This document shows, one piece after another, positions 1 through 9,487 of a stretch of 9,487 nucleotides of DNA. A model generated the notes under the pieces. That model searched no databases. It saw only the letters and a program-made list of their open reading frames with translations, and had not been told where the DNA came from. Each line of letters begins with the position of its first letter. Position 1 is the stretch's first letter. The stretch lies in IMG/VR virus record IMGVR_UViG_2534681766_000004; one strand, written 5' to 3'. This DNA comes from a virus (Duplodnaviria > Heunggongvirae > Uroviricota > Caudoviricetes). A program made the position numbers and the translations under genes.

Positions 1-21
1 TGAGGCAGGGAAACGCATGCA

Positions 22-54
22 AAGCCATGCACCTTATCGATGCATGGCTTTTTT
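22..54. terminator. Hairpin terminator just 3' of psu, possibly bidirectional
   Basis: Perfect 10-bp inverted repeat aagccatgca / tgcatggctt (22-31 and 41-50) with a 9-nt loop, followed by TTTTTT at 49-54 on the + strand. On the minus strand it lies just downstream of the psu stop at 85-87. Confidence 0.4.
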
Positions 55-84
55 CAGTAAAAACGGGCGGATTTTCGGGGAATT

Positions 85-642
85 TTACACAGACTGACGT
101 GATGCCAGTTGCGCACTTTTACGCGAAAAAATCATGTTCTGCGCAGGAGTGAATTTTTCACGGCTGTCATCCACCGAAGCCGCGTCAGGCCTGAATCCGA
201 TGGCCGTTAAAATGTCGCTATCCTGTACGGAATAATTAATTTTTTCACCCTTCGCAAGCCAGGACAGAAGGGCTTCACGCAGGGCATCTGTGGCACGCTG
301 TATGGCACAGTTTCGGGCAATGGCCGTCAGCTCACTGTAGCCCATCAGCTCCGGTGCCAGTGCCGCCGCCAGTGCTGTGCCGTGCTGCTGCATAAAATCA
401 TTCAGCCGGTCGCGGATGCTGATGTGCTGAACGGCTTCATGCGAACGAATATAACGACCAGCGGCCTGATTCACCTGCCATTTTCTGACTTCGATAATAT
501 TGCGTAATTCGTCCAGGCGACTGACGTTTCTGCCTTCTCCTGACAGAAGCCGCAGATATTCCTGTTCGGCCGCTGCCAGCTCATTTTTGCGTTGCAGCCA
601 TGCTGCTTTGTTATTCTGACAGGTGTCAAAGGCCTGCTGTAG
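85..642 (-). pseudogene. psu: Polarity suppression protein Psu homolog, 5'-truncated with no in-frame canonical start codon
   Basis: The minus-strand frame is open from 666 down to the stop at 85-87. From codon 640-642 it reads LQQAFDTCQNNKAAWLQRKNELAAAEQEYLRLLSGEGRNVSRLDELRNIIEVRKWQVNQAAGRYIRS..., which I recognise as Psu-like. Upstream of 642 the frame runs into antisense alpha-derived sequence and hits a stop at 667-669 with no ATG/GTG/TTG; the first possible start is the internal GTG at 472-474 (the 129-aa ORF in the track). Confidence 0.55.
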
Positions 643-736
643 CCCCGCAGGAGCGCGACCCGCAGCTTAAGGACAAAATCACCCGCGAGCTGGCGGTCAT
701 CGTGCGTCACCTGATGCAGAAGTTCAGCGACCCGAT
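640..736 (+). repeat. Ectopic 97-bp exact copy of an internal alpha gene segment, overlying the delta/psu junction
   Basis: 640-736 is base-for-base identical to 6399-6495 in the same orientation (compared by hand). The flanking bases differ on both sides: 639 g vs 6398 a, and 737 t vs 6496 g. Confidence 0.9.
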
Positions 737-1212
737 TGTGTTTTTAACCGTACTGGCGGCAGTTCCTGTTTTTCATGCAGGCGTTCTGCCAGTTCGTCCG
801 GTGTGACCGGGCGGACAATGAAGCGGTTGATGGTCTGAAGCGTTTTAAACACCAGACCACAGCCCGGATCCGTGCACACATAAAAACGCTCGGTGACTTC
901 CTGAGACAGACGCCGCGATGTTCTTGACAGCGCAAGGCCTTTACATCTCCGACAACAATATCCGGTAACAAGCATTCTTTTCGGGCGTTTCATGCTACCG
1001 GAGGCTGACGTCAGTGAATCGCGGTATCTCTGTTTGCCTGAAATGTATTCCATTCCTGAATCTTTACAGTCAGAGAAAAAGCTTTCACTCGCTTCAAATG
1101 TCGCAGAGCAATAAATATTCCGGCACTGTGCAATCATTATCTTGGTGCCATCGTCCATGAAATGTGCGCGACGGGTGTGAGCAACATGTCCACACGACGG
1201 GCAGTAAATCAT
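724..1212 (-). CDS. delta: Delta late-gene transcriptional activator (tandem Ogr-like zinc-finger protein), C-terminus altered
   Basis: 162-aa ORF with two Ogr-type C-x2-C-x22-C-x4-C zinc-finger units (MIYCPSCGH...CRNIYC and YCCRRCKG...CTDPGC). Its ATG at 1210-1212 overlaps the sid stop (ATGA). The last codons and the stop (724-736) lie inside the alpha-derived 97-bp segment. Confidence 0.8.
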   Translation of the reverse strand: MIYCPSCGHVAHTRRAHFMDDGTKIMIAQCRNIYCSATFEASESFFSDCKDSGMEYISGKQRYRDSLTSASGSMKRPKRMLVTGYCCRRCKGLALSRTSRRLSQEVTERFYVCTDPGCGLVFKTLQTINRFIVRPVTPDELAERLHEKQELPPVRLKTQSGR

Positions 1213-1943
1213 GACAGCAGTCCTCTGGCCTTAAGCTCTGCTCCCTGCTGGTCTATTTTGTCCTGCCACACCTTGCGCTGTGCCGGTGTGCCTGCCACCT
1301 CATAATCCATGTGCGGGAGTGTTGCCGCTGACAGTCCGGTCAGCCGGAGAACCGGCTCGCCGGTGAGGCTGATTTGCATCTGTTTTATTTTCTGTTCCAG
1401 CGATGATTTCACCTGCTGCATGACAGCTTTATCGGGTGCGACGTAGCCCTGATGCCCGGTGGTGTTGGCGAGCGGATTTTCCTGTACCAGAATGCTCAGA
1501 TGCATTGCCCGGACAAGCGCCTCACAGGTTTCATTCAGGGCGTGTTCCAGCTCATGCTCTGCATACAGACTCAGCAGGTGATGATGTGCCTTCCGGTAGG
1601 CGGTGGCCGTGCTGTCACACGCCCCTTTCAGGCGTTCACGTTCGAAATTCAGCACCACGGCCAGATTGTCATATTCCTGTACCAGCTCCCGGCGTGCCAC
1701 GCGCTCAATGTGGCGCTGTTTCAGCTCGTCGCTCAGGACACCACCGGCTGCACGAAAGGCCGTGCGCCAGTCGTCAGCGTCGTTTCCGTCGGCCTGCGCC
1801 AGCGCATTTTTTTCCTGCTCTGCCCGTTCAATGGCCGTGACGGTCTCATCCATCAGGCGGGCGTTCTCAAGATGGGCGGCTCTGGCCTTTTCCAGTTGTG
1901 CCAGCGCGGGTTGCAGATATTCAGGGATGGTGTTGTCAGACAT
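1209..1943 (-). CDS. sid: Sid external scaffold (capsid size determination) protein
   Basis: Minus-strand ORF. The ATG at 1941-1943 gives 244 aa starting MSDNTIPEYLQPALAQLEKARAAHL..., preceded by a GAGGAG-like Shine-Dalgarno. The protein is coiled-coil-like and alanine/glutamate-rich. The 266-aa version in the ORF track is an upstream in-frame extension. Confidence 0.85.
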   Translation of the reverse strand: MSDNTIPEYLQPALAQLEKARAAHLENARLMDETVTAIERAEQEKNALAQADGNDADDWRTAFRAAGGVLSDELKQRHIERVARRELVQEYDNLAVVLNFERERLKGACDSTATAYRKAHHHLLSLYAEHELEHALNETCEALVRAMHLSILVQENPLANTTGHQGYVAPDKAVMQQVKSSLEQKIKQMQISLTGEPVLRLTGLSAATLPHMDYEVAGTPAQRKVWQDKIDQQGAELKARGLLS

Positions 1944-1968
1944 TTTCCGGCTCCTCGTCACTTCAGGT

Positions 1969-2033
1969 TGAGAAAATTGTGACGTACACCGGACAACAAC
2001 ACGACGCATTGCAGATGTGCCAGCCCTGACACA
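1969..2033 (-). promoter_or_regulatory. Psid-like late promoter with two Delta/Ogr-type TGT-N12-ACA boxes
   Basis: TGT-gacgtacaccgg-ACA at 1978-1995 and TGT-gccagccctgac-ACA at 2016-2033, centres about 38 bp apart, directly upstream of sid on the minus strand. P2/P4 late promoters use TGT-N12-ACA activator sites. Confidence 0.5.
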
Positions 2034-2112
2034 GGAGACTCATCCTCAGACCGGCAAGCCAGGAAAAGGTCGCAGGAAAAACCGGCTTACTGTTTGTTTT
2101 TTTATATTTTAC

Positions 2113-2216
2113 TGTTCACCTCTGTTAACCATAAGAAAAAAGATAAGTAATACAGTAAGTTAAAGGGTGAACAATCGCAGTAATGACTGTTCACCGTCTG
2201 TTCACCACTGTTCACC
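2113..2216. repeat. Replication origin (ori1-like) iteron cluster, alpha-binding TGTTCACC octamers
   Basis: TGTTCACC at 2113-2120, 2188-2195, 2199-2206 and 2209-2216; the variant TGTTAACC at 2123-2130; the reverse-complement GGTGAACA at 2166-2173. The region is AT-rich and non-coding, about 4.8 kb from the crr repeats downstream of alpha. Confidence 0.7.
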
Positions 2217-2351
2217 CGTTGATGGGCTTTTTATGCTGTTTATTACTGTTTATTTTTATTAATTCACTGAAATAAATAAGAAAAAACAATTTGCATTTCA
2301 CTATAAAAAATTCCAGTTCCTTCAGAACCCTTTGAGACCCTTCCAGTCCGG

Positions 2352-2543
2352 ATGGATAAAAAACACACAGCCATTGTAAGGTTGCCGGAACAAATTCCCC
2401 CTGTTGCGTCTGCTGAAAATATTCACAAAATAAAGCGCTACCCGAAGCCGGACGGACTTATCCGGTGCTGTATGGACATTAACGAGGTAGCCCGATGCAA
2501 GCTGTTTTTTCTTCCCCGTCTCCCGCCCCTGTTACGCCACTGA
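2352..2543 (+). CDS. Hypothetical small protein (63 aa); may instead be untranslated leader or immunity region
   Basis: ORF in the track with no convincing Shine-Dalgarno; it overlaps the better-supported downstream gene by 49 bp in another frame. Confidence 0.2.
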   Translation: MDKKHTAIVRLPEQIPPVASAENIHKIKRYPKPDGLIRCCMDINEVARCKLFFLPRLPPLLRH

Positions 2544-2761
2544 TGCCGCTGCCGGACATCACGCAGGAGCGTTTTTTACGTCTGCCGGAAGTGATGCACC
2601 TGTGCGGCCTGTCACGCTCGACCATCTATGAACTCATCCGTAAGGGGGAATTTCCGCCGCAGGGGAGTCTTGGCGGTAAAAATGTGGCCTGGCTGCACTC
2701 TGAAGTCACCGCATGGATGGCCGGGCGCATTGCCGGACGCAAACGGGGGTACGACGCATGA
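2495..2761 (+). CDS. AlpA/Vis-family small helix-turn-helix regulator (88 aa)
   Basis: Contains [28 protein letters not shown], typical of the AlpA / phage excisionase-like HTH family. GAGGT Shine-Dalgarno 6 nt before the ATG at 2495. Its stop overlaps the next ATG (ATGA at 2758-2761). Confidence 0.75.
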
Positions 2762-3348
2762 TGATGCCCGCTCTGCAAAAACTCCCTTTTTCTGGCTTGC
2801 CTTTTTCCGGCATTTGCGGATATAGTTTTTCCGCTGCCGCAAAATCGGCAGCCGGGCGTGAGAACCCGAGTATGTTATCGGCGACATATGACGCGCCATG
2901 CGTCTTTTTTTGTGTCGCAATCAACGCCACAGAGCGCCAGATTATGGTGTGGCGTGTGGTTTGCCGTGCAGGTATGATCCTGTTCGCAATCGCATGTTAT
3001 GCCACTGAGTCAATGGTAGCTCAGGCGGGGCAGCCTCCGGGCTGGCCGGTATCCGATAACGCCGGTATTCTCACCCCCGTCTGGGCTATCGCCATCGAGC
3101 GTGAGAACTCCGGCGATAGCGTCATTTACGCTGTTATCGGAGGTTGCCTTATGGCTACGACCCTTACCCCCTCACACCCTGAATTTGTCTTTGTGTTTGC
3201 GGCTGTCCGTCGCGCAGACCGTCATCCCCGTATCTGTATGCTTCGCACCGTCGCCGGTGATGAACGCAGCGCCCGCCGTTCCCTTGTCCGTGACTATGTG
3301 CTCTCCCTTGCTGCCCGTCTGCCGGTGGTGGAGGTGTCCCGTGCGTAA
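2758..3348 (+). CDS. Hypothetical protein (about 196 aa)
   Basis: ATG at 2758 overlaps the stop of the upstream gene, and its own stop overlaps the next start (GTGCGTAA). The composition of this frame is more protein-like than the overlapping +2 frame (3101-3340), which is P/L/S/C/R/W-rich. Confidence 0.5.
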
Positions 3349-3628
3349 TAAAAAAGCCCCTCAGACCGTCTCAGCGCGTCATGACGCCCGTGAACACCTC
3401 AGCATTGAGGCTTACCATAAGCTCAACCGCGCCAGCGCCGTATCCCGGTTTGTTGGGGGTGATTTGATTCACCGTGAACTCTCCGGCCTGCATCAGCTCT
3501 ACATTCCGCATATTTTCAGCTACCTGAATGAAGATATTGATTTTGTGCTGAATGAACTGAAAGCCAAAGGCCTGTGCCGCGATTTTCTCGCCCAGCAGAA
3601 AGACCGGGGAGACAGGACGCATGTTTGA
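3341..3628 (+). CDS. Hypothetical small protein (95 aa, GTG start); position and size would fit a P4 epsilon-type gene, not verified
   Basis: GGAGG Shine-Dalgarno 7 nt upstream of the GTG at 3341. There is no internal Met, so the start must be non-ATG. Its stop overlaps the next ATG (ATGTTTGA). Confidence 0.5.
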
Positions 3629-4076
3629 TTTTCCCCAGCCCGGTGAGATTTACCGTTCTGCCGGTTTTCCCGATGTGGCCGTGGTCGGCATTCTGGAAGA
3701 CGGTATTCCGTGGGAAATGCCGTACCGCTGCCCGGAAATTGTCTGGAACCCGTACCGCCGTAAATTCAGTATCCTTGTGCGTATCCTCGCCGACGGGCGC
3801 ACCACAGACATCCCGCTGGGGCGTTTTCTGCGGGAATTTACCTGTGACCGTCCTGACCTGTTTAAACGCAGCCCCGTAAACCGGCATGCGGTACTGAAAG
3901 AAATGGCCGGAGACCCGGAATTACAGAAATGGCGGGAGAAATATCTGGATATTTACCCGCAGGACCCTGTTCCGGTCAGCCGGGCGGCACCGGTGGCGCG
4001 GGAATGGCGGGAAATTCCCCGCACGGAGCCTGACCCGGAAACCACCCCGGATAACAGTTACCGCAATTATCTGTAA
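3621..4076 (+). CDS. Hypothetical protein (151 aa), orf151-like
   Basis: ATG at 3621 is coupled to the upstream stop. The length equals the P4 orf151 that sits upstream of alpha in my recollection; function unknown. Confidence 0.6.
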   Translation: MFDFPQPGEIYRSAGFPDVAVVGILEDGIPWEMPYRCPEIVWNPYRRKFSILVRILADGRTTDIPLGRFLREFTCDRPDLFKRSPVNRHAVLKEMAGDPELQKWREKYLDIYPQDPVPVSRAAPVAREWREIPRTEPDPETTPDNSYRNYL

Positions 4077-4211
4077 TTAAAAAACGACCCCCGAAAAATT
4101 AAATGTGCGTATTCGCGCAGGGATACGCACGTCTTCAGGAGACGCAGATATGCCTTATCAGTTAATGCAACCGGCACGGAATGCAGTCATCTGTCACAGG
4201 GAGGAAAACAA

Positions 4212-4532
4212 ATGAAAACACCCTTACCGCCCGTCTTACGCGCTGCCCTTTACCGTCGCGCTGTCGCCTGTGCCTGGCTGACCGTGTGCGAACGTCAGCA
4301 CCGCTACCCGCATCTCACCCTTGAGTCACTGGAGGCGGCCATCGCCGCTGAGCTGGAAGGCTTTTATCTGCGCCAGCACGGTGAGGAAAAAGGGCGTCAG
4401 ATAGCCTGTGCCCTGCTGGAAGATTTAATGGAATCCGGCCCCCTGAAGGCCGCGCCGTCGCTGTCCTTTCTCGGGCTGGTTGTGATGGATGAACTCTGTG
4501 CCCGTCACATAAAAGCGCCGGTACTGCACTGA
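4212..4532 (+). CDS. Hypothetical protein (106 aa)
   Basis: GGGAGG Shine-Dalgarno about 7 nt upstream of the ATG at 4212; it ends 14 bp before the alpha start. Confidence 0.6.
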
Positions 4533-4546
4533 AGGAGAACTACACC

Positions 4547-6880
4547 ATGAAAATGAACGTAACCGCCACCGTCAGTCATGCGCTCGGCCACTGGCCGCGT
4601 ATTCTCCCGGCGCTGGGGATTCAGGTGCTGAAAAACCGTCATCAGCCCTGTCCGGTCTGTGGCGGGAGTGACCGCTTCCGTTTTGATGACAGGGAGGGGC
4701 GCGGCACCTGGTACTGCAATCAGTGTGGTGCCGGTGACGGCCTGAAACTGGTTGAAAAGGTGTTTGGTGTCTCCCCGTCCGACGCGGCCACAAAGGTGGC
4801 TGCCGTGACCGGCAGCCTGCCCCCGGCTGACCCGGCAGTGACGGCTGCCGCCGGTGCTGAAACAGACGCTGCCCGGAAGAACGCCGCCGCACTGGCACAA
4901 ACCCTGATGGCGAAAACCCGTCCCGGAACCGGTAACGCCTACCTGACCCGCAAGGGCTTTCCCGGCCGGGAATGCCGGATGCTGACCGGCACACACAGAG
5001 CCGGTGGCGTGAGCTGGCGTGCCGGTGACCTTGTGGTGCCACTGTATGACGACAGCGGCGAACTGGTTAACCTTCAGTTAATCAGTGCTGACGGCCGTAA
5101 GCGCACCCTGAAAGGCGGGCAGGTCAGGGGCACCTGTCACATCCTTGAAGGACAGAATCAGGCCGGAAAACGTCTGTGGATAGCGGAGGGATACGCGACC
5201 GCACTTACCGTGCATCACCTGACCGGTGAAACGGTGATGGTGGCGCTTTCTTCCGTGAATCTCCTTTCTCTGGCCAGCCTTGCCCGGCAGAAGCATCCGG
5301 CCTGTCAGATTGTCCTTGCTGCTGACCGTGACCTCAGCGGTGACGGCCAGAAAAAAGCCGCCGCAGCCGCAGATGCGTGTGAAGGTGTTGTTGCCCTGCC
5401 GCCGGTCTTCGGTGACTGGAATGATGCCTTCACGCAGTACGGCGGGGAAGCCACCCGTAAGGCCATTTATGATGCCATCCGGCCACCGGCTGAAAGCCCG
5501 TTCGACACCATGAGCGAAGCGGAGTTTTCCGCCATGAGTACCAGCGAAAAGGCCATGCGTATCTATGAGCATTACGGCGAGGCGCTCGCGGTCGATGCCA
5601 ACGGCCAGCTTCTGTCCCGCTATGAAAATGGTGTCTGGAAGGTGCTGCCGCCACAGGACTTTGCCCGGGATGTGGCCGGGCTGTTTCAGCGTCTGCGCGC
5701 GCCGTTCTCCTCCGGGAAGGTGGCCTCCGTGGTGGACACCCTGAAGCTGATTATTCCGCAGCAGGAAGCCCCCTCCCGCCGCCTGATTGGCTTTCGTAAC
5801 GGCGTGCTCGACACGCAGAACGGCACGTTCCACCCGCACAGTCCGTCACACTGGATGCGCACCCTGTGCGATGTGGATTTCACCCCGCCGGTGGACGGTG
5901 AAACGCTGGAGACCCACGCCCCCGCGTTCTGGCGCTGGCTTGACCGTGCCGCCGGTGGCCGTGCGGAAAAACGCGACGTGATTCTGGCCGCACTGTTTAT
6001 GGTGCTGGCAAACCGCTACGACTGGCAGCTCTTTCTGGAGGTGACCGGTCCCGGCGGCAGCGGCAAAAGTATCATGGCCGAAATAGCCACCCTGCTGGCC
6101 GGGGAGGATAACGCCACGTCGGCCACCATTGAGACGCTGGAATCCCCGCGTGAACGTGCCGCGTTAACTGGCTTCTCACTGATACGCCTGCCGGACCAGG
6201 AAAAATGGAGCGGCGACGGAGCCGGACTCAAGGCCATCACCGGCGGCGATGCAGTGTCCGTTGACCCGAAATACCGGGATGCGTACTCCACGCACATCCC
6301 GGCGGTGATTCTGGCCGTGAACAATAACCCGATGCGCTTCACCGACCGCAGCGGCGGCGTGTCACGCCGGCGGGTGATTATTCACTTCCCGGAACAGATA
6401 GCCCCGCAGGAGCGCGACCCGCAGCTTAAGGACAAAATCACCCGCGAGCTGGCGGTCATCGTGCGTCACCTGATGCAGAAGTTCAGCGACCCGATGCTCG
6501 CCCGGTCACTGCTTCAGTCCCAGCAGAACTCAGACGAGGCACTGAACATCAAACGGGATGCCGACCCGACGTTTGATTTTATCGGCTATCTGGAAACCCT
6601 GCCGCAGACCAGCGGCATGTATATGGGGAACGCCAGTATCATCCCGCGTAATTACCGTAAATACCTCTATCACGCCTATCTGGCCTACATGGAGGCAAAC
6701 GGCTACCGGAATGTACTCAGTCTGAAAATGTTCGGGCTGGGGCTACCGGTGATGCTGAAGGAATACGGACTGAATTACGAGAAGCGCCATACCAAACAGG
6801 GGATACAGACCAACCTGACGCTGAAAGAGGAAAGCTACGGCGACTGGCTGCCAAAATGTGACGACCCTGCAACAACCTGA
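4547..6880 (+). CDS. alpha: Alpha protein: bifunctional DNA primase / helicase with C-terminal origin-binding domain
   Basis: 777-aa ORF with an AAGGAG Shine-Dalgarno. N-terminal zinc-binding primase motif CPVCGGSDRFRFDD...WYCNQCG; a Toprim-like segment; Walker A GPGGSGKS; the conserved RRRVIIHFP...DPQLKDKITRELAVIV motif typical of D5/P4-type primase-helicases. Antisense ORFs inside it are GC-rich noise. Confidence 0.95.
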   Translation: MKMNVTATVSHALGHWPRILPALGIQVLKNRHQPCPVCGGSDRFRFDDREGRGTWYCNQCGAGDGLKLVEKVFGVSPSDAATKVAAVTGSLPPADPAVTAAAGAETDAARKNAAALAQTLMAKTRPGTGNAYLTRKGFPGRECRMLTGTHRAGGVSWRAGDLVVPLYDDSGELVNLQLISADGRKRTLKGGQVRGTCHILEGQNQAGKRLWIAEGYATALTVHHLTGETVMVALSSVNLLSLASLARQKHPACQIVLAADRDLSGDGQKKAAAAADACEGVVALPPVFGDWNDAFTQYGGEATRKAIYDAIRPPAESPFDTMSEAEFSAMSTSEKAMRIYEHYGEALAVDANGQLLSRYENGVWKVLPPQDFARDVAGLFQRLRAPFSSGKVASVVDTLKLIIPQQEAPSRRLIGFRNGVLDTQNGTFHPHSPSHWMRTLCDVDFTPPVDGETLETHAPAFWRWLDRAAGGRAEKRDVILAALFMVLANRYDWQLFLEVTGPGGSGKSIMAEIATLLAGEDNATSATIETLESPRERAALTGFSLIRLPDQEKWSGDGAGLKAITGGDAVSVDPKYRDAYSTHIPAVILAVNNNPMRFTDRSGGVSRRRVIIHFPEQIAPQERDPQLKDKITRELAVIVRHLMQKFSDPMLARSLLQSQQNSDEALNIKRDADPTFDFIGYLETLPQTSGMYMGNASIIPRNYRKYLYHAYLAYMEANGYRNVLSLKMFGLGLPVMLKEYGLNYEKRHTKQGIQTNLTLKEESYGDWLPKCDDPATT
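6399..6495 (+). repeat. Native copy, inside alpha, of the 97-bp segment duplicated at 640-736
   Basis: Identical to 640-736. Here it is in frame within alpha and encodes a conserved primase-helicase motif (APQERDPQLKDKITRELAVIVRHLMQKFSDP), so this is the original and the copy at 640-736 is the ectopic one. Confidence 0.9.
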
Positions 6881-6896
6881 CCCTCATGACTCATCT

Positions 6897-6921
6897 GACC
6901 GGCATCTGCCGGTCTTTTTTT
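6897..6921 (+). terminator. Rho-independent terminator of the alpha operon
   Basis: Stem gaccggc (6897-6903) pairs with gccggtc (6908-6914) around a 4-nt loop, followed by TTTTTTT at 6915-6921, 17 bp after the alpha stop. Confidence 0.6.
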
Positions 6922-6939
6922 ATCCCGATATCCCCCGCA

Positions 6940-7240
6940 GGTGAACAATCCACTGTTCACCCTTCACCGTATATTCACCCGTTATCATACTGAAATTAAA
7001 AGAGAAAAACGAAAGGTGAACAGTGTGAACAATCAAATCAAAAAAAACTTTTTTTCTCCCTGTGTGATTTCAGTACGGGGGATTAATCACCGGTATGAGT
7101 CACACCGGCAGAATGCCGGAGGTGAAGAATCGAATGTTCACCCTTCACCCATTATTCACCACCTATCATACTGAAATAAAAGGAGAAAACAGAAAGGTGA
7201 ACAGTGTGAACAGTTCTTTCGAAAAAAAAATTTTTTCCTG
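6940..7240. repeat. crr (cis replication region): two direct repeats of about 108 bp carrying TGTTCACC / GGTGAACA iterons
   Basis: Repeat 1 (about 6953-7062) and repeat 2 (about 7134-7240) align closely (..tgttcacccttcacc..tcatactgaaat..aaaggtgaacagtgtgaaca..poly-A/T). Each carries several octamers matching the ori iterons. The 77-aa ORF at 6941-7174 is a translation of these repeats. Confidence 0.75.
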
Positions 7241-7289
7241 TACGATATAGCATCAATCCAAGTAAAAATGCGCTTTCATTTCACATTAA

Positions 7290-7400
7290 CTTACAGCCAT
7301 TGGTATACGATTAGGTATACGCACAAAAAATGAATTAAACAAAATCATTAAAAATCAAAGCAATACAATATTTATTCAAACTCCGCCAGCCAATATTGAT
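7290..7400. other. Possible attP-like region (AT-rich, short direct repeats, tRNA 3'-end-like stretch)
   Basis: Tandem GGTATACG at 7302-7309 and 7314-7321; repeated AAATCA; ttcaaactccgccagcc at 7377-7393 loosely resembles a tRNA T-loop/acceptor 3' half. Position between crr and int is where attP lies in P4. Weak and unverified. Confidence 0.2.
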
Positions 7401-7557: not shown

Positions 7558-8787
7558 ATGGCCAAAATCGCTAAGAAGCTCACTGACACTGAAATCAAAA
7601 GCACCAACCCTGCCGAAAAAGAGGTTAACCTTTTTGACGGCGATGGTTTGCTGTTGCGAATCGCTCCCCTGGCGAAGGGAGGGAAGAAAAATTGGTATTT
7701 CAGATATGCAGTGCCTGTGACCAAAAAGCGAACTAAGGTGAGCTTAGGAACCTATCCTCACCTTACACTTGCGAAGGCACGAGCTTTACGTGATGAATAC
7801 TTGTCGTTGCTTACAAATGGTATAGACCCCCAAGTTCATAACAACCAAAAAGCCAATGCACTGAAAGATGCCACGGAACATACATTTCAAGCAGTAGCCA
7901 AGAAGTGGCTTGATGAGAAAGTCAAAACGTCAGGCATCTCCCAAGATCATGCTAACGACATCTGGCGAAGCCTAGAGAGAAATATCTTTTCCACATTGGG
8001 TGATACCCCAATTAAGGAGATTCGCCCTAAAATGCTTAAACAGCATTTAGAACCCATAGAAAAACGAGGGGTCCTTGAAACACTTCGCCGCATCATATCC
8101 CGCCTGAATGAAATTTTCCGCTATGCAGCAACAGAAGAACTCATAGAATTCAACCCGGCAGACAACCTGGGGCAACGGTTCAGCAAGCCAAAAAAACAGA
8201 ATATGCCAGCATTACCCCCTTCCGAACTCCCTCGCTTCTTGGTTGCTCTAAACAATGCTTCTATCCGTTTGGAAACAAGGCTACTGATTGAGTGGCAACT
8301 TCTCACATGGGTTCGCCCAGGTGAAGCTGTTCGCACAAGATGGTCAGATATTGATATTGAAACTGGCATGTGGAACATCCCGGCGGAGTTTATGAAAATG
8401 AAGAAGCCTCACAAAGTTCCACTGAGCAAAGAAGCTTTGCGAGTTTTGGATTTAATGAAAGTCATCAGCGGGCATAGAGAGTGGGTGTTCCCCAGTATCA
8501 AAGCTCCACTCAATCACATGCATGAACAAACAGCTAATGCGGCCATAATCCGTATGGGTTTCGGAGGTGAGCTTGTAGCTCACGGTATGCGATCCATTGC
8601 TAGAACGGCTGCTGAGGAGTCTGGCAAGTTTAGGACTGATGTCTTAGAAGCCGCCCTTGCCCACTCGAAGAAAGATGAAATAATTGCAGCCTACAATCGT
8701 GCAGAGTATCTCACTGAACGGGTGGTTCTCATGCAATGGTGGAGTGACTATGTTTCGTCTCAAAAATGCAAAGTTATTGCCGCATAA
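7558..8787 (+). CDS. int: Tyrosine site-specific integrase, P4 family (N-terminal arm-binding domain plus C-terminal catalytic domain)
   Basis: 409 aa from the ATG at 7558 (MAKIAKKLTDTEIK...) with a GAGGG Shine-Dalgarno. N-terminal arm-binding-like region (GLLLRI...KNWYFRY...LGTYP); catalytic signatures VRPGEAVRTRWSDID, HGMRSIART (HxxR) and AAYNRAEY (nucleophile Tyr). The upstream in-frame extension from 7477 begins right after a stop and is not credible. Confidence 0.9.
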   Translation: MAKIAKKLTDTEIKSTNPAEKEVNLFDGDGLLLRIAPLAKGGKKNWYFRYAVPVTKKRTKVSLGTYPHLTLAKARALRDEYLSLLTNGIDPQVHNNQKANALKDATEHTFQAVAKKWLDEKVKTSGISQDHANDIWRSLERNIFSTLGDTPIKEIRPKMLKQHLEPIEKRGVLETLRRIISRLNEIFRYAATEELIEFNPADNLGQRFSKPKKQNMPALPPSELPRFLVALNNASIRLETRLLIEWQLLTWVRPGEAVRTRWSDIDIETGMWNIPAEFMKMKKPHKVPLSKEALRVLDLMKVISGHREWVFPSIKAPLNHMHEQTANAAIIRMGFGGELVAHGMRSIARTAAEESGKFRTDVLEAALAHSKKDEIIAAYNRAEYLTERVVLMQWWSDYVSSQKCKVIAA

Positions 8788-8849
8788 CTCTCCCATGATG
8801 GATTAACTATCTTGATTTAGTTAAAGAATTAATAATCACACCATTAACC

Positions 8850-8899
8850 TATGTGGACTAAGCATAGCCATTTACAAATGGGGACATTGAGTCCACATA
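8850..8899. repeat. Perfect 10-bp inverted repeat with 30-bp spacer between int and the recombinase gene
   Basis: tatgtggact (8850-8859) and agtccacata (8890-8899) are exact reverse complements, in an AT-rich non-coding spacer. Confidence 0.6.
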
Positions 8900-9069
8900 A
8901 CGAAAGCTGTCGGTCATATCAGCTAAATAATTCACATCTCTTCTCGATTATCATACACCTCGAAGATCTACCAAATTCGCTCTAATCAATGATAAAACAG
9001 TTGAATTCGGTTGAAATTTGATCAATTTTATCCACTACATTGTATTGAATCATCCATGAGGTTTCGTGC

Positions 9070-9487
9070 ATGGCTAGCGAAAATGACAAAAATCATAGAG
9101 TTAGGGTCGCGCAGTACTTGAGGATGTCTACCGACCATCAGCAATATTCTTTACATAATCAGTCCGAATATATCAAAGATTATGCTGAAAAGAACAATAT
9201 GGAAATCGCTTATACCTACGATGATGCAGGTAAGAGCGGAGTCAGTATCGTAGGCAGGCATTCTTTGCAGCAGTTACTTAGCGATGTAGAACAAAAGAAA
9301 ATAGATATACAGGCTGTATTATTTTATGATGTGAGCCGTTTTGGTCGTTTTCAAAATAGTGATGAAGCGGCATATTATCCCTTTCTATTTGAGAGAAATG
9401 GTGTAGATCTTATATATTGTTCCGAACCTATACCCACTAAAGATTTCCCTTTAGAGTCCTCTGTTATACTGAATATAAAAAGATCTA
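9070..9487 (+). CDS. Serine recombinase-like protein (resolvase/invertase-type catalytic domain), 3'-partial
   Basis: ATG at 9070 with a GAGG Shine-Dalgarno 8 nt upstream; the frame is open to the window end (139 codons). Translation RVAQYLRMSTDHQQYSLHNQ...DDAGKSG...RHSLQQLLSDVEQKKIDIQAVLFYDVSRFGR matches the serine recombinase N-terminal motifs (Y-x-R-x-S-T-x-x-Q nucleophile region, D-x-x-SG, R-x-x-L-x-x-LL). It is absent from the ORF track because it has no stop within the window. Confidence 0.6.
   Translation, partial: MASENDKNHRVRVAQYLRMSTDHQQYSLHNQSEYIKDYAEKNNMEIAYTYDDAGKSGVSIVGRHSLQQLLSDVEQKKIDIQAVLFYDVSRFGRFQNSDEAAYYPFLFERNGVDLIYCSEPIPTKDFPLESSVILNIKRS

Follow-up and report, generated by a model that had tools for sequence, protein, structure and literature searches.

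A serine recombinase gene next to a tyrosine integrase at ssrA belongs to a widespread three-gene cassette with two ParB-like proteins

Why should a serine recombinase gene stand immediately behind a tyrosine integrase gene, an unrelated recombinase, at the end of what had been read as one small satellite? The question is raised by a stretch of 9,487 nucleotides of viral DNA (IMG/VR record IMGVR_UViG_2534681766_000004, Caudoviricetes; the whole stretch is called the window here), in which a tyrosine integrase gene (int#2) is followed by the first part of a serine recombinase gene (SR) with an unusual-looking YDVSRFGR sequence. We find that SR opens a translationally coupled operon, SR–ParB1–ParB2, and that this three-gene cassette is a discrete, horizontally spread and so far uncharacterised unit across bacterial phyla.

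The recombinase gene and its cassette

The full extent of SR is clear from complete Escherichia coli genomes. Window region 8780-9487 is matched in 659 of 5426 such genomes, always on the chromosome and in 506 of them at ≥99% identity, and many hold DNA that is 99.9% identical. The open reading frame (ORF) has 518 aa in the matching genomes, where RefSeq labels it 'recombinase family protein'; over the 418 nt present in the window, the window copy differs by 1 nt from that of E. coli NZ_CP033401 (locus L001) and by 2 nt from that of locus L002. The frame opens at ATG 9070, with a GAGG at 9058-9061, eight nt 5′ of the ATG, and meets no stop before the window end. Its translation begins MASENDKNHRVRVAQYLRMSTDHQ and holds YLRMSTDHQ at residues 16-24 and YDVSRFGR at residues 86-93; the former is the serine-recombinase nucleophile motif that the original prediction had recognised, with Ser20 in the nucleophile position.

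Profile searches with the full-length protein gave two significant Pfam domains, Resolvase (PF00239) at residues 14-152 (E 7.7e-22, 78.4 bits, cut-off 23.3) and, after the αE helix, Recombinase (PF07508) at residues 210-312 (E 6e-22, 78.3 bits, cut-off 21.1), the first of them mostly contained in the 139 SR residues of the window itself. A recombinase-domain match is thus present and the ORF runs far past the window end. By this domain content, the window ORF is the start of a genuine gene of the large-serine-recombinase superfamily, and it does lie downstream of a tyrosine integrase gene, as had been noted, with a 282-nt gap between the two genes.

Two 298-aa proteins, each with ParB_N and RepB-family matches, are encoded 3′ of SR, and successive genes of the operon overlap by 11 and 4 nt. 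ParB1 conserves the motifs NPRxR, GxGR and ENxARR, and ParB2 conserves LLDGHxR and QEH. The GC content of the E. coli cassette is 32-34%, against 51% in the host flank, 55% in the satellite and 46% in int#2. The cassette is present in 655 of the 5426 complete E. coli genomes (~12%), BL21 included, as one copy per genome, and all three ORFs are intact in 620 of the 655 copies.

The same arrangement extends far beyond E. coli. A scan of 1.84 billion representative proteins returned 1345 clusters (50% identity) at E<1e-30, most of them ~500-540 aa long and matching end to end. When one genome per species was scanned, 80 loci with SR homologues 43-47% identical were obtained, spanning Alpha-, Beta- and Gammaproteobacteria, Acidobacteriota, Planctomycetota, Bdellovibrionota and Myxococcota. 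SR, ParB1 and ParB2 overlap or abut in 73 of these 80 loci, the exceptions being contig ends or a decayed copy (L055); the order is also kept in 46 of 49 divergent IMG/VR loci, and the orientation of the cassette relative to its partner genes is identical in all loci. Plasmids carry the cassette too: 67 were found, most of them megaplasmids (pAtC58, for example), and no DNA near-identical to the E. coli copy was found on plasmids. Among 50,697 phage genomes, the SR gene occurs in one unverified record. These counts speak against SR belonging to the backbone of phages or plasmids.

None of the cassette proteins has an NCBIfam equivalog match. CcrB, of the CcrB/DsiB-type cassette recombinases, is the best NCBIfam match of SR, yet it reaches 63 bits against a cut-off of 900, and CcrC and IS607 are also far below threshold. 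In the literature, no name or description of the cassette was found save an incidental mention of a protein accession.

Catalytic motif and C-terminal domain

YDVSRFGR had been considered atypical at the site where resolvases usually have D-R-x-x-R, and it proves to be the family norm. In alignments of 27 and then 108 SR family members the consensus at this site is YDVSRWGRFQD; Asp87, Arg90, Gly92 and Arg93 are invariant in both, Ser89 is ≥90% conserved, and Tyr16, Arg18, Ser20, Gln24, Asp52 and Arg63 are invariant among the 27 members and ≥90% conserved among the 108. Solved catalytic domains of large serine recombinases, aligned by phmmer against PDB sequences, read LVFKLSRFAR (3guv), SISRFAR (3g13) and VYKLDRLSR (TP901-1) at the same site, so that the SR motif resembles the SRFAR of solved members.

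The comparison with γδ resolvase that had been proposed for scoring the catalytic residues gave the same picture. Plain BLASTP was too insensitive to be useful here; hhalign, run with the γδ resolvase sequence, pairs Tyr16 with Tyr6, Arg18 with Arg8, Ser20 with Ser10, Asp52 with Asp36, Arg63 with Arg45, Ser89 with Asp67, Arg90 with Arg68 and Arg93 with Arg71. All of the γδ residues Arg8, Ser10, Asp36, Arg45, Arg68 and Arg71 are therefore kept. The idea that acidic and arginine positions might be shifted or substituted holds for the acidic one: Asp67, the sole changed one of the γδ positions compared, is a Ser (Ser89) in SR, and likewise in 3guv and 3g13, while the arginines are in register. 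Family alignments, PDB alignments and the γδ profile alignment together rule out an atypical catalytic core, and the enzyme is, to judge from its conserved residues, probably catalytically competent and active.

The remainder of the protein is different from that of known relatives. The AlphaFold model of SR has a pLDDT of 91.3, and matches to the phage serine integrases (SPβ SprA, Bxb1 and φC31, as well as TP901-1 and A118) span only ~300-330 residues. These integrases have a zinc-ribbon and a coiled coil, whereas SR is without both: the zinc-ribbon profile (PF13408) gave no match even at E≤1 in three SR family members, and the SR C-terminal sequence contains no CxxC pairs. Small resolvases and invertases (γδ, Tn3, Hin, Gin), at ~185 aa with a C-terminal helix-turn-helix, differ as well from the 518-aa SR with its Recombinase domain. 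SR is also unlike the phage serine integrases in always being accompanied by two ParB-like genes and in being nearly absent from sequenced phage genomes, and no att sites could be defined for it from the leader palindromes or from flanking-repeat searches.

What SR carries in place of these elements was examined by modelling. A sub-threshold match to the 'homing endonuclease associated repeat' lies at residues 319-364. A separate model of residues 372-518 (pLDDT 90.5) has the homing endonuclease I-Ssp6803I as its best Foldseek match (E 5.5e-5, 136 of 138 columns, TM-score 0.46-0.48), followed by PvuII, Eco15I and the SPARDA nuclease, with Hjc also among the structural matches; a single one of the matches has E<1e-3. 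There is no detectable sequence similarity between the SR C-terminus and I-Ssp6803I, PvuII, Hjc or the Eco15I N-domain, the TM-score is <0.5, and a profile of the C-terminal domain found nothing among PDB sequences. Within the SR family, the C-terminus conserves a literal P-D (Asp452), Arg458, Asp468 and Trp441; the family alignments show no obvious (D/E)xK, the other half of the nuclease motif, and have the conserved Arg458 instead.

From these models, the C-terminal domain likely adopts a PD-(D/E)XK fold, nearest to that of I-Ssp6803I, and the whole C-terminus would consist of a helical segment and this PD-(D/E)XK-like domain, replacing the zinc-ribbon and coiled coil of the phage integrases. 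The domain may be a DNA-recognition scaffold only, without a nuclease role.

Islands at ssrA, boundaries and accompanying elements

The notion of two recombinases within one small satellite did not survive, since a degenerate copy of the 3′ end of ssrA, the tmRNA gene, divides a P4-like satellite from the island that carries int#2 and SR (Table 1). From 7386 on, the window is 99% colinear with L001, beginning at the last 6 nt of ssrA; this colinearity and the ssrA 3′-end copy mark the window as the junction of two tandem ssrA islands. The full order in NZ_CM196107 is ssrA – int#1 – 567-aa protein – psu/δ/sid…α – ssrA-end repeat – int#2 – SR – ParB – ParB – type I restriction-modification (R-M) remnant. 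In NZ_CP033401 and BL21, int#2–SR–ParB–ParB lies directly at ssrA with no satellite. SR is thus outside the P4-like satellite, and int#2 belongs to the SR-carrying ssrA island, not to the satellite.

Table 1. Positions of features in the window and, in the last row, examples of the structured RNA from other loci
Feature	Position	Strand	Description	Basis
P4-like satellite	1..7374		psu (partial), δ, sid, C4/isrK RNAs, α primase	ORFs, Rfam, RefSeq of identical region
C4/isrK RNAs	2820-3096		within P4-like satellite	
α primase	4547-6880		within P4-like satellite	
crr-like repeat region	6935-7237		2×122 nt, in P4-like satellite	
Degenerate ssrA 3′ end	7375..7392	+	TTCAAACTCCGCCAGCCA vs TTCAACTCCCGCCAGCTCCACCA; satellite/second-island junction	
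int#2	7558..8787	+	P4-type tyrosine integrase, 409 aa	Pfam Arm-DNA-bind_3 + Phage_int_M + Phage_integrase
Leader	8788..9069	+	AT-rich, 282 nt, int#2 stop to SR start	
Imperfect palindrome	8850-8899		50 bp	repeat search
Palindrome	9014-9029		AAATTTGATCAATTTT, 16 bp	repeat search
SR	9070..9487	+	5′ 139 codons of 518-aa gene	translation; full length from 99.9%-identical genomes
SR codon R18	9121-9123			
SR codon S20	9127-9129		nucleophile	
SR codon D52	9223-9225			
SR codon R63	9256-9258			
SR codons YDVSRFGR	9325-9348			
SR codon R90	9337-9339			
SR codon R93	9346-9348			
Structured RNA, examples	L051:9380-9490; L024:4731-4841; L003:11345-11455		~38 further loci	

Integrase and cassette are closely linked. 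With int#2 present at ≥90% identity in ~677 E. coli genomes and the cassette in 655, int#2 is nearly always accompanied by the cassette. The type I R-M island that lies downstream in L001 also occurs in NCTC9104 (96% identity), but there the cassette is absent and the integrase is only 80% identical; the segment corresponding to L001 13975-18075 is missing, and the integrase terminator hairpin abuts the stop codon. From this comparison, int#2 and the cassette behave like a single unit. In E. coli CB209, a UvrD-helicase and ATP-dependent-nuclease pair (Gabija-like; L092:8483-12396) replaces the cassette after an 85%-identical ssrA integrase, and E. coli W and MS 21-1 have different cargo again at this position. 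The tmRNA locus is a known E. coli defence hotspot (#9) that collects satellites, prophages and islands (PMC10121019).

Homology between cassette copies in different genomes ends at positions of about -450 to -480 nt (left) and +110 to +215 nt (right). In the E. coli copies it stops exactly 48 nt past ParB2, and right-hand breakpoints there vary by lineage (+48 vs +450 nt); the pAtC58 unit covers 8503-12377. At both pAtC58 junctions (L083:8485-8523 and 12366-12404) stands a similar motif of ~40 bp (CCTTGA-N7-TYGAACC-NTNGGCCC…TGTCA), within which the similarity to related plasmids breaks off; the motif could be att-like, or else an ordinary repeat of intergenic DNA. An empty-site comparison on Agrobacterium pAt plasmids found only one-sided relatives, and a search of 60+ loci for flanking direct repeats or duplicated gene ends found none but those at L039 and in an E. 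coli integrase-fragment case. The latter concerns L086 and L087, two E. coli lineages at 95% identity, in which a decayed integrase 3′ fragment with in-frame stops, 82% identical to the last 268 nt of int#2, starts 24 nt after the conserved 48-nt cassette tail (L086:12392-12676; L087:12409-12676). The L086 cassette block lies in an island beside a tRNA-Arg gene, not at ssrA. Insertion of the cassette into an integrase gene was rejected for these loci, as comparison with NCTC9104 shows that int#2 and the cassette were exchanged together; the sequence pattern and the differing breakpoints would fit tandem islands followed by deletions better than insertion.

The wider neighbourhood of the cassette includes type I R-M genes, RloB with an AAA ATPase, ParB-methylases and SNF2 helicases, and on pAtC58 AbiEi/AbiEii and Fic. 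No ParA-type ATPase was found in or beside the operon in E. coli or pAtC58, nor among the most frequent neighbour families. In IMG/VR, ~30 predicted proviruses (among loci L136-L177) have the cassette ≤3 kb from a predicted end, facing tail, tail-fibre and endolysin genes, the provirus boundaries being themselves predictions. Since sequenced phage genomes are without it, the cassette at provirus ends is probably a tandem neighbour and not a phage gene. A role of SR as a prophage integrase was likewise rejected, with provirus ends only predicted and a lone unverified phage record.

The leader between int#2 and SR is 92-95% conserved among E. coli variants; its 50-bp palindrome is the most variable part and the 16-bp palindrome is kept. 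No second copy of the former was found within 39 kb, the latter has no convincing additional copies nearby, and the palindromes 5′ of SR in 28 loci show no common pattern. We infer from the sequence that the leader palindromes could be an operator or binding site. In 33 of the 80 loci, a small, divergently transcribed gene (~128-135 aa) without a Pfam match lies ~97 nt upstream of SR (for example, L007:7466-7849 and L083:8523-8927, both on the minus strand, plus 31 more loci); the E. coli cassette is without it.

A structured RNA accompanies part of the family. In 40 of the 80 genome loci, a GC-rich element of ~110 nt begins 2-90 nt after ParB2 on the same strand, and it is more conserved than the coding genes of the cassette. 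The loci with the element belong mainly to Rhodobacterales, Sphingomonadales, Hyphomicrobiales and Acetobacteraceae, with a single one from Bdellovibrionota. A structure of five helices is predicted and is 97.9% paired; 9 pairs (55 cells) show changes on both sides. None of 500 shuffles reached the observed covariation, and slid controls were 27-43% paired. The G-U pairs place the motif on the operon strand. It has no Rfam 15 match, and its covariance model did not find it in the window, the E. coli loci, pAtC58 or the beta- and gammaproteobacterial loci; being absent from the E. coli loci, it is not needed for the cassette of the window. Orphan copies 3.9-5 kb 3′ of an intact cassette (L081:15036-15411, after a ParB2-like fragment, and L007:16375-16485) suggest remnants of a second cassette. 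The alphaproteobacterial RNA is a candidate RNA family separate from the cassette itself.

In the satellite half of the window, direct repeats of 122 nt (6935-7056 and 7116-7237; 82% identical, 181 nt start to start) stand just 3′ of α and resemble the crr replication region of phage P4. Another direct repeat, perfect over 97 nt (640-736 and 6399-6495), is a piece of the α primase-helicase coding sequence duplicated between psu and δ.

What the cassette may do

The reading that we favour, tentatively and with less than even confidence, is that the cassette is a self-contained cargo for conflict between mobile elements, for example in excluding phages, plasmids or rival islands or in defending against them. 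A recombinase-like domain recruited into a cargo or defence setting was also among the options of the original prediction. Integration of the island would be the work of the tyrosine integrase and not of SR. ParB1 and ParB2 would bind and spread on, or clamp, DNA; ParB1 has the GxGR and ENxARR motifs of CTP-binding ParB proteins, and ParB2 has DGHxR. SR would then be recruited to the ParB-bound DNA and could cut or rearrange it through its Ser20 active site, its nuclease-like C-terminal domain, or both. The reading is drawn from the other cargo held by the ssrA slot, the defence-type neighbours and the near-absence from sequenced phages, as well as from a conserved, discrete operon of foreign GC content at a recognised defence hotspot. 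The likeness to integrase-adjacent defence cargo such as the Gabija-like pair lies in four features: the same post-integrase slot at ssrA, foreign GC, a self-contained operon and R-M or Abi neighbours.

Several points weigh against this conflict-cargo reading. Unlike catalogued defence cargo, the cassette matches no PADLOC v2 system: no model matches SR or ParB1, and the only match of ParB2 is to the ParB-like N-terminal part of a methyltransferase model. No defence system is known to use a serine-recombinase catalytic domain as its effector. The neighbour genes are heterogeneous, with a putative excess of defence genes. The cassette sits at the edges of variable regions, by integrases and tRNA genes, where integration modules are placed. 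The missing (D/E)xK half-motif and a TM-score to I-Ssp6803I of just 0.46-0.48 make a nuclease effector less secure. Finally, the strictly kept active site and the Recombinase domain argue for true strand exchange, which a role in mobility or resolution fits at least as well.

Such a role is the strongest alternative, and we regard it as possible, if rather doubtful. SR would be a true site-specific recombinase of the carrier element, acting as integrase or excisionase where no tyrosine integrase is present and as a resolvase of multimers or tandem arrays where there is one, and the ParBs would be architectural or centromere-like partners. Besides the conserved catalytic residues and Recombinase DNA-binding domain, this maintenance or mobility role is favoured by the nearest structures, which are phage and SCC-type integrases, and by the placement of the cassette at one edge of variable DNA, often by tRNA genes or an integrase and at predicted provirus ends. 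ParB/RepB-family proteins are partition proteins, and both ParB1 and ParB2 match ParB_N and the RepB family, as in ParABS and RepABC systems. There is also a parallel in the integration module of the Dehalococcoides ssrA islands, in which a ~540-aa CcrB-like serine recombinase and a ParB-domain protein are found at the tmRNA gene (PMC3146451).

The resemblance to both systems is incomplete. Compared with ParABS and RepABC, the cassette is without a ParA/RepA ATPase, it always has two divergent ParB paralogues together, its ParBs score far under the equivalog cut-offs, and E. coli has it on the chromosome as a single copy. The Dehalococcoides module has extra genes (a small recombinase, RecF-like, Mom-like and RNAP-domain genes) and only one ParB, of 210 aa, as against two in the SR cassette; its serine recombinase is the presumed ssrA integrase, whereas a tyrosine integrase has that role in the E. 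coli island. A maintenance or mobility role is further opposed by the lack of att-like flanking repeats in 60+ loci (L039 is the sole exception) and of a clean empty site, by the single copy per E. coli genome with integration already supplied by the tyrosine integrase, by the absence of the SR family from sequenced phage genomes save the one unverified record, and by the missing zinc-ribbon and coiled coil that govern integrase directionality.

A more specific scheme, which we consider unlikely, is a three-protein DNA-targeting system. A fusion of serine recombinase and homing-endonuclease-like domain would be directed or licensed by a heterologous, perhaps CTP-dependent, ParB clamp pair, joined in the alphaproteobacterial versions by the ~110-nt RNA. 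If true, the scheme could represent a mechanism of defence or exclusion not recognised before, or site-specific recombination of a new kind.

Less probable again is a nested autonomous element of ~4 kb, made up of the small divergent gene or leader, SR–ParB–ParB and a tail, that hitch-hikes in or beside island integrase genes. The original prediction had raised a nested mobile element, and the sharp unit boundaries agree with it, whereas terminal repeats, a target duplication and a clean empty site are in general lacking. The second integrase 3′ end in L086 and L087 resembles the icd-type signature of a replaced 3′ end, a similar motif lies at both pAtC58 junctions, and remnants consist of tail plus ParB2 fragment (L081) or of an extra tail (L007). 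Against this, the comparison with the NCTC9104 sister island and its 80%-identical integrase points to exchange of int#2 and the cassette as a block instead of insertion of the cassette, the right breakpoints at +48 or +450 nt by lineage are expected for deletions in tandem arrays, and each genome holds a single copy.

A DNA invertase controlling a phase-variable segment, also proposed originally, is very improbable. SR has its catalytic domain in common with Hin, Gin and Pin, and yet it is a 518-aa protein with a Recombinase domain and not an invertase of ~190 aa with a C-terminal helix-turn-helix; within 8.4 kb, no credible inverted repeats bracket a segment (the matches are 70-86% complementary and mostly AT-rich), and the cassette faces the same way relative to its partner genes in all loci. 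Least credible of all is a decaying remnant without current function. Some copies are indeed truncated or disrupted by insertion sequences (H67, H69, H91 and H95 in E. coli; L018, L055). Even so, 620 of 655 E. coli copies have all three ORFs intact, homologues of ~35-45% identity drawn from many phyla share invariant catalytic and structural residues, and the family fills 1345 clusters at E<1e-30.

Taken together, the reported oddity dissolves, as the motif follows the family norm and the window covers two islands lying in tandem at the tmRNA gene. What remains is a widespread unnamed cassette pairing an intact serine recombinase, with a nuclease-like C-terminus, with two ParB-like proteins. 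BL21 carries this cassette as almost the sole cargo of a minimal island, so its function is directly testable there. Whether the cassette is a defence or exclusion system or a ParB-assisted recombination module, either function would be new for serine recombinases.

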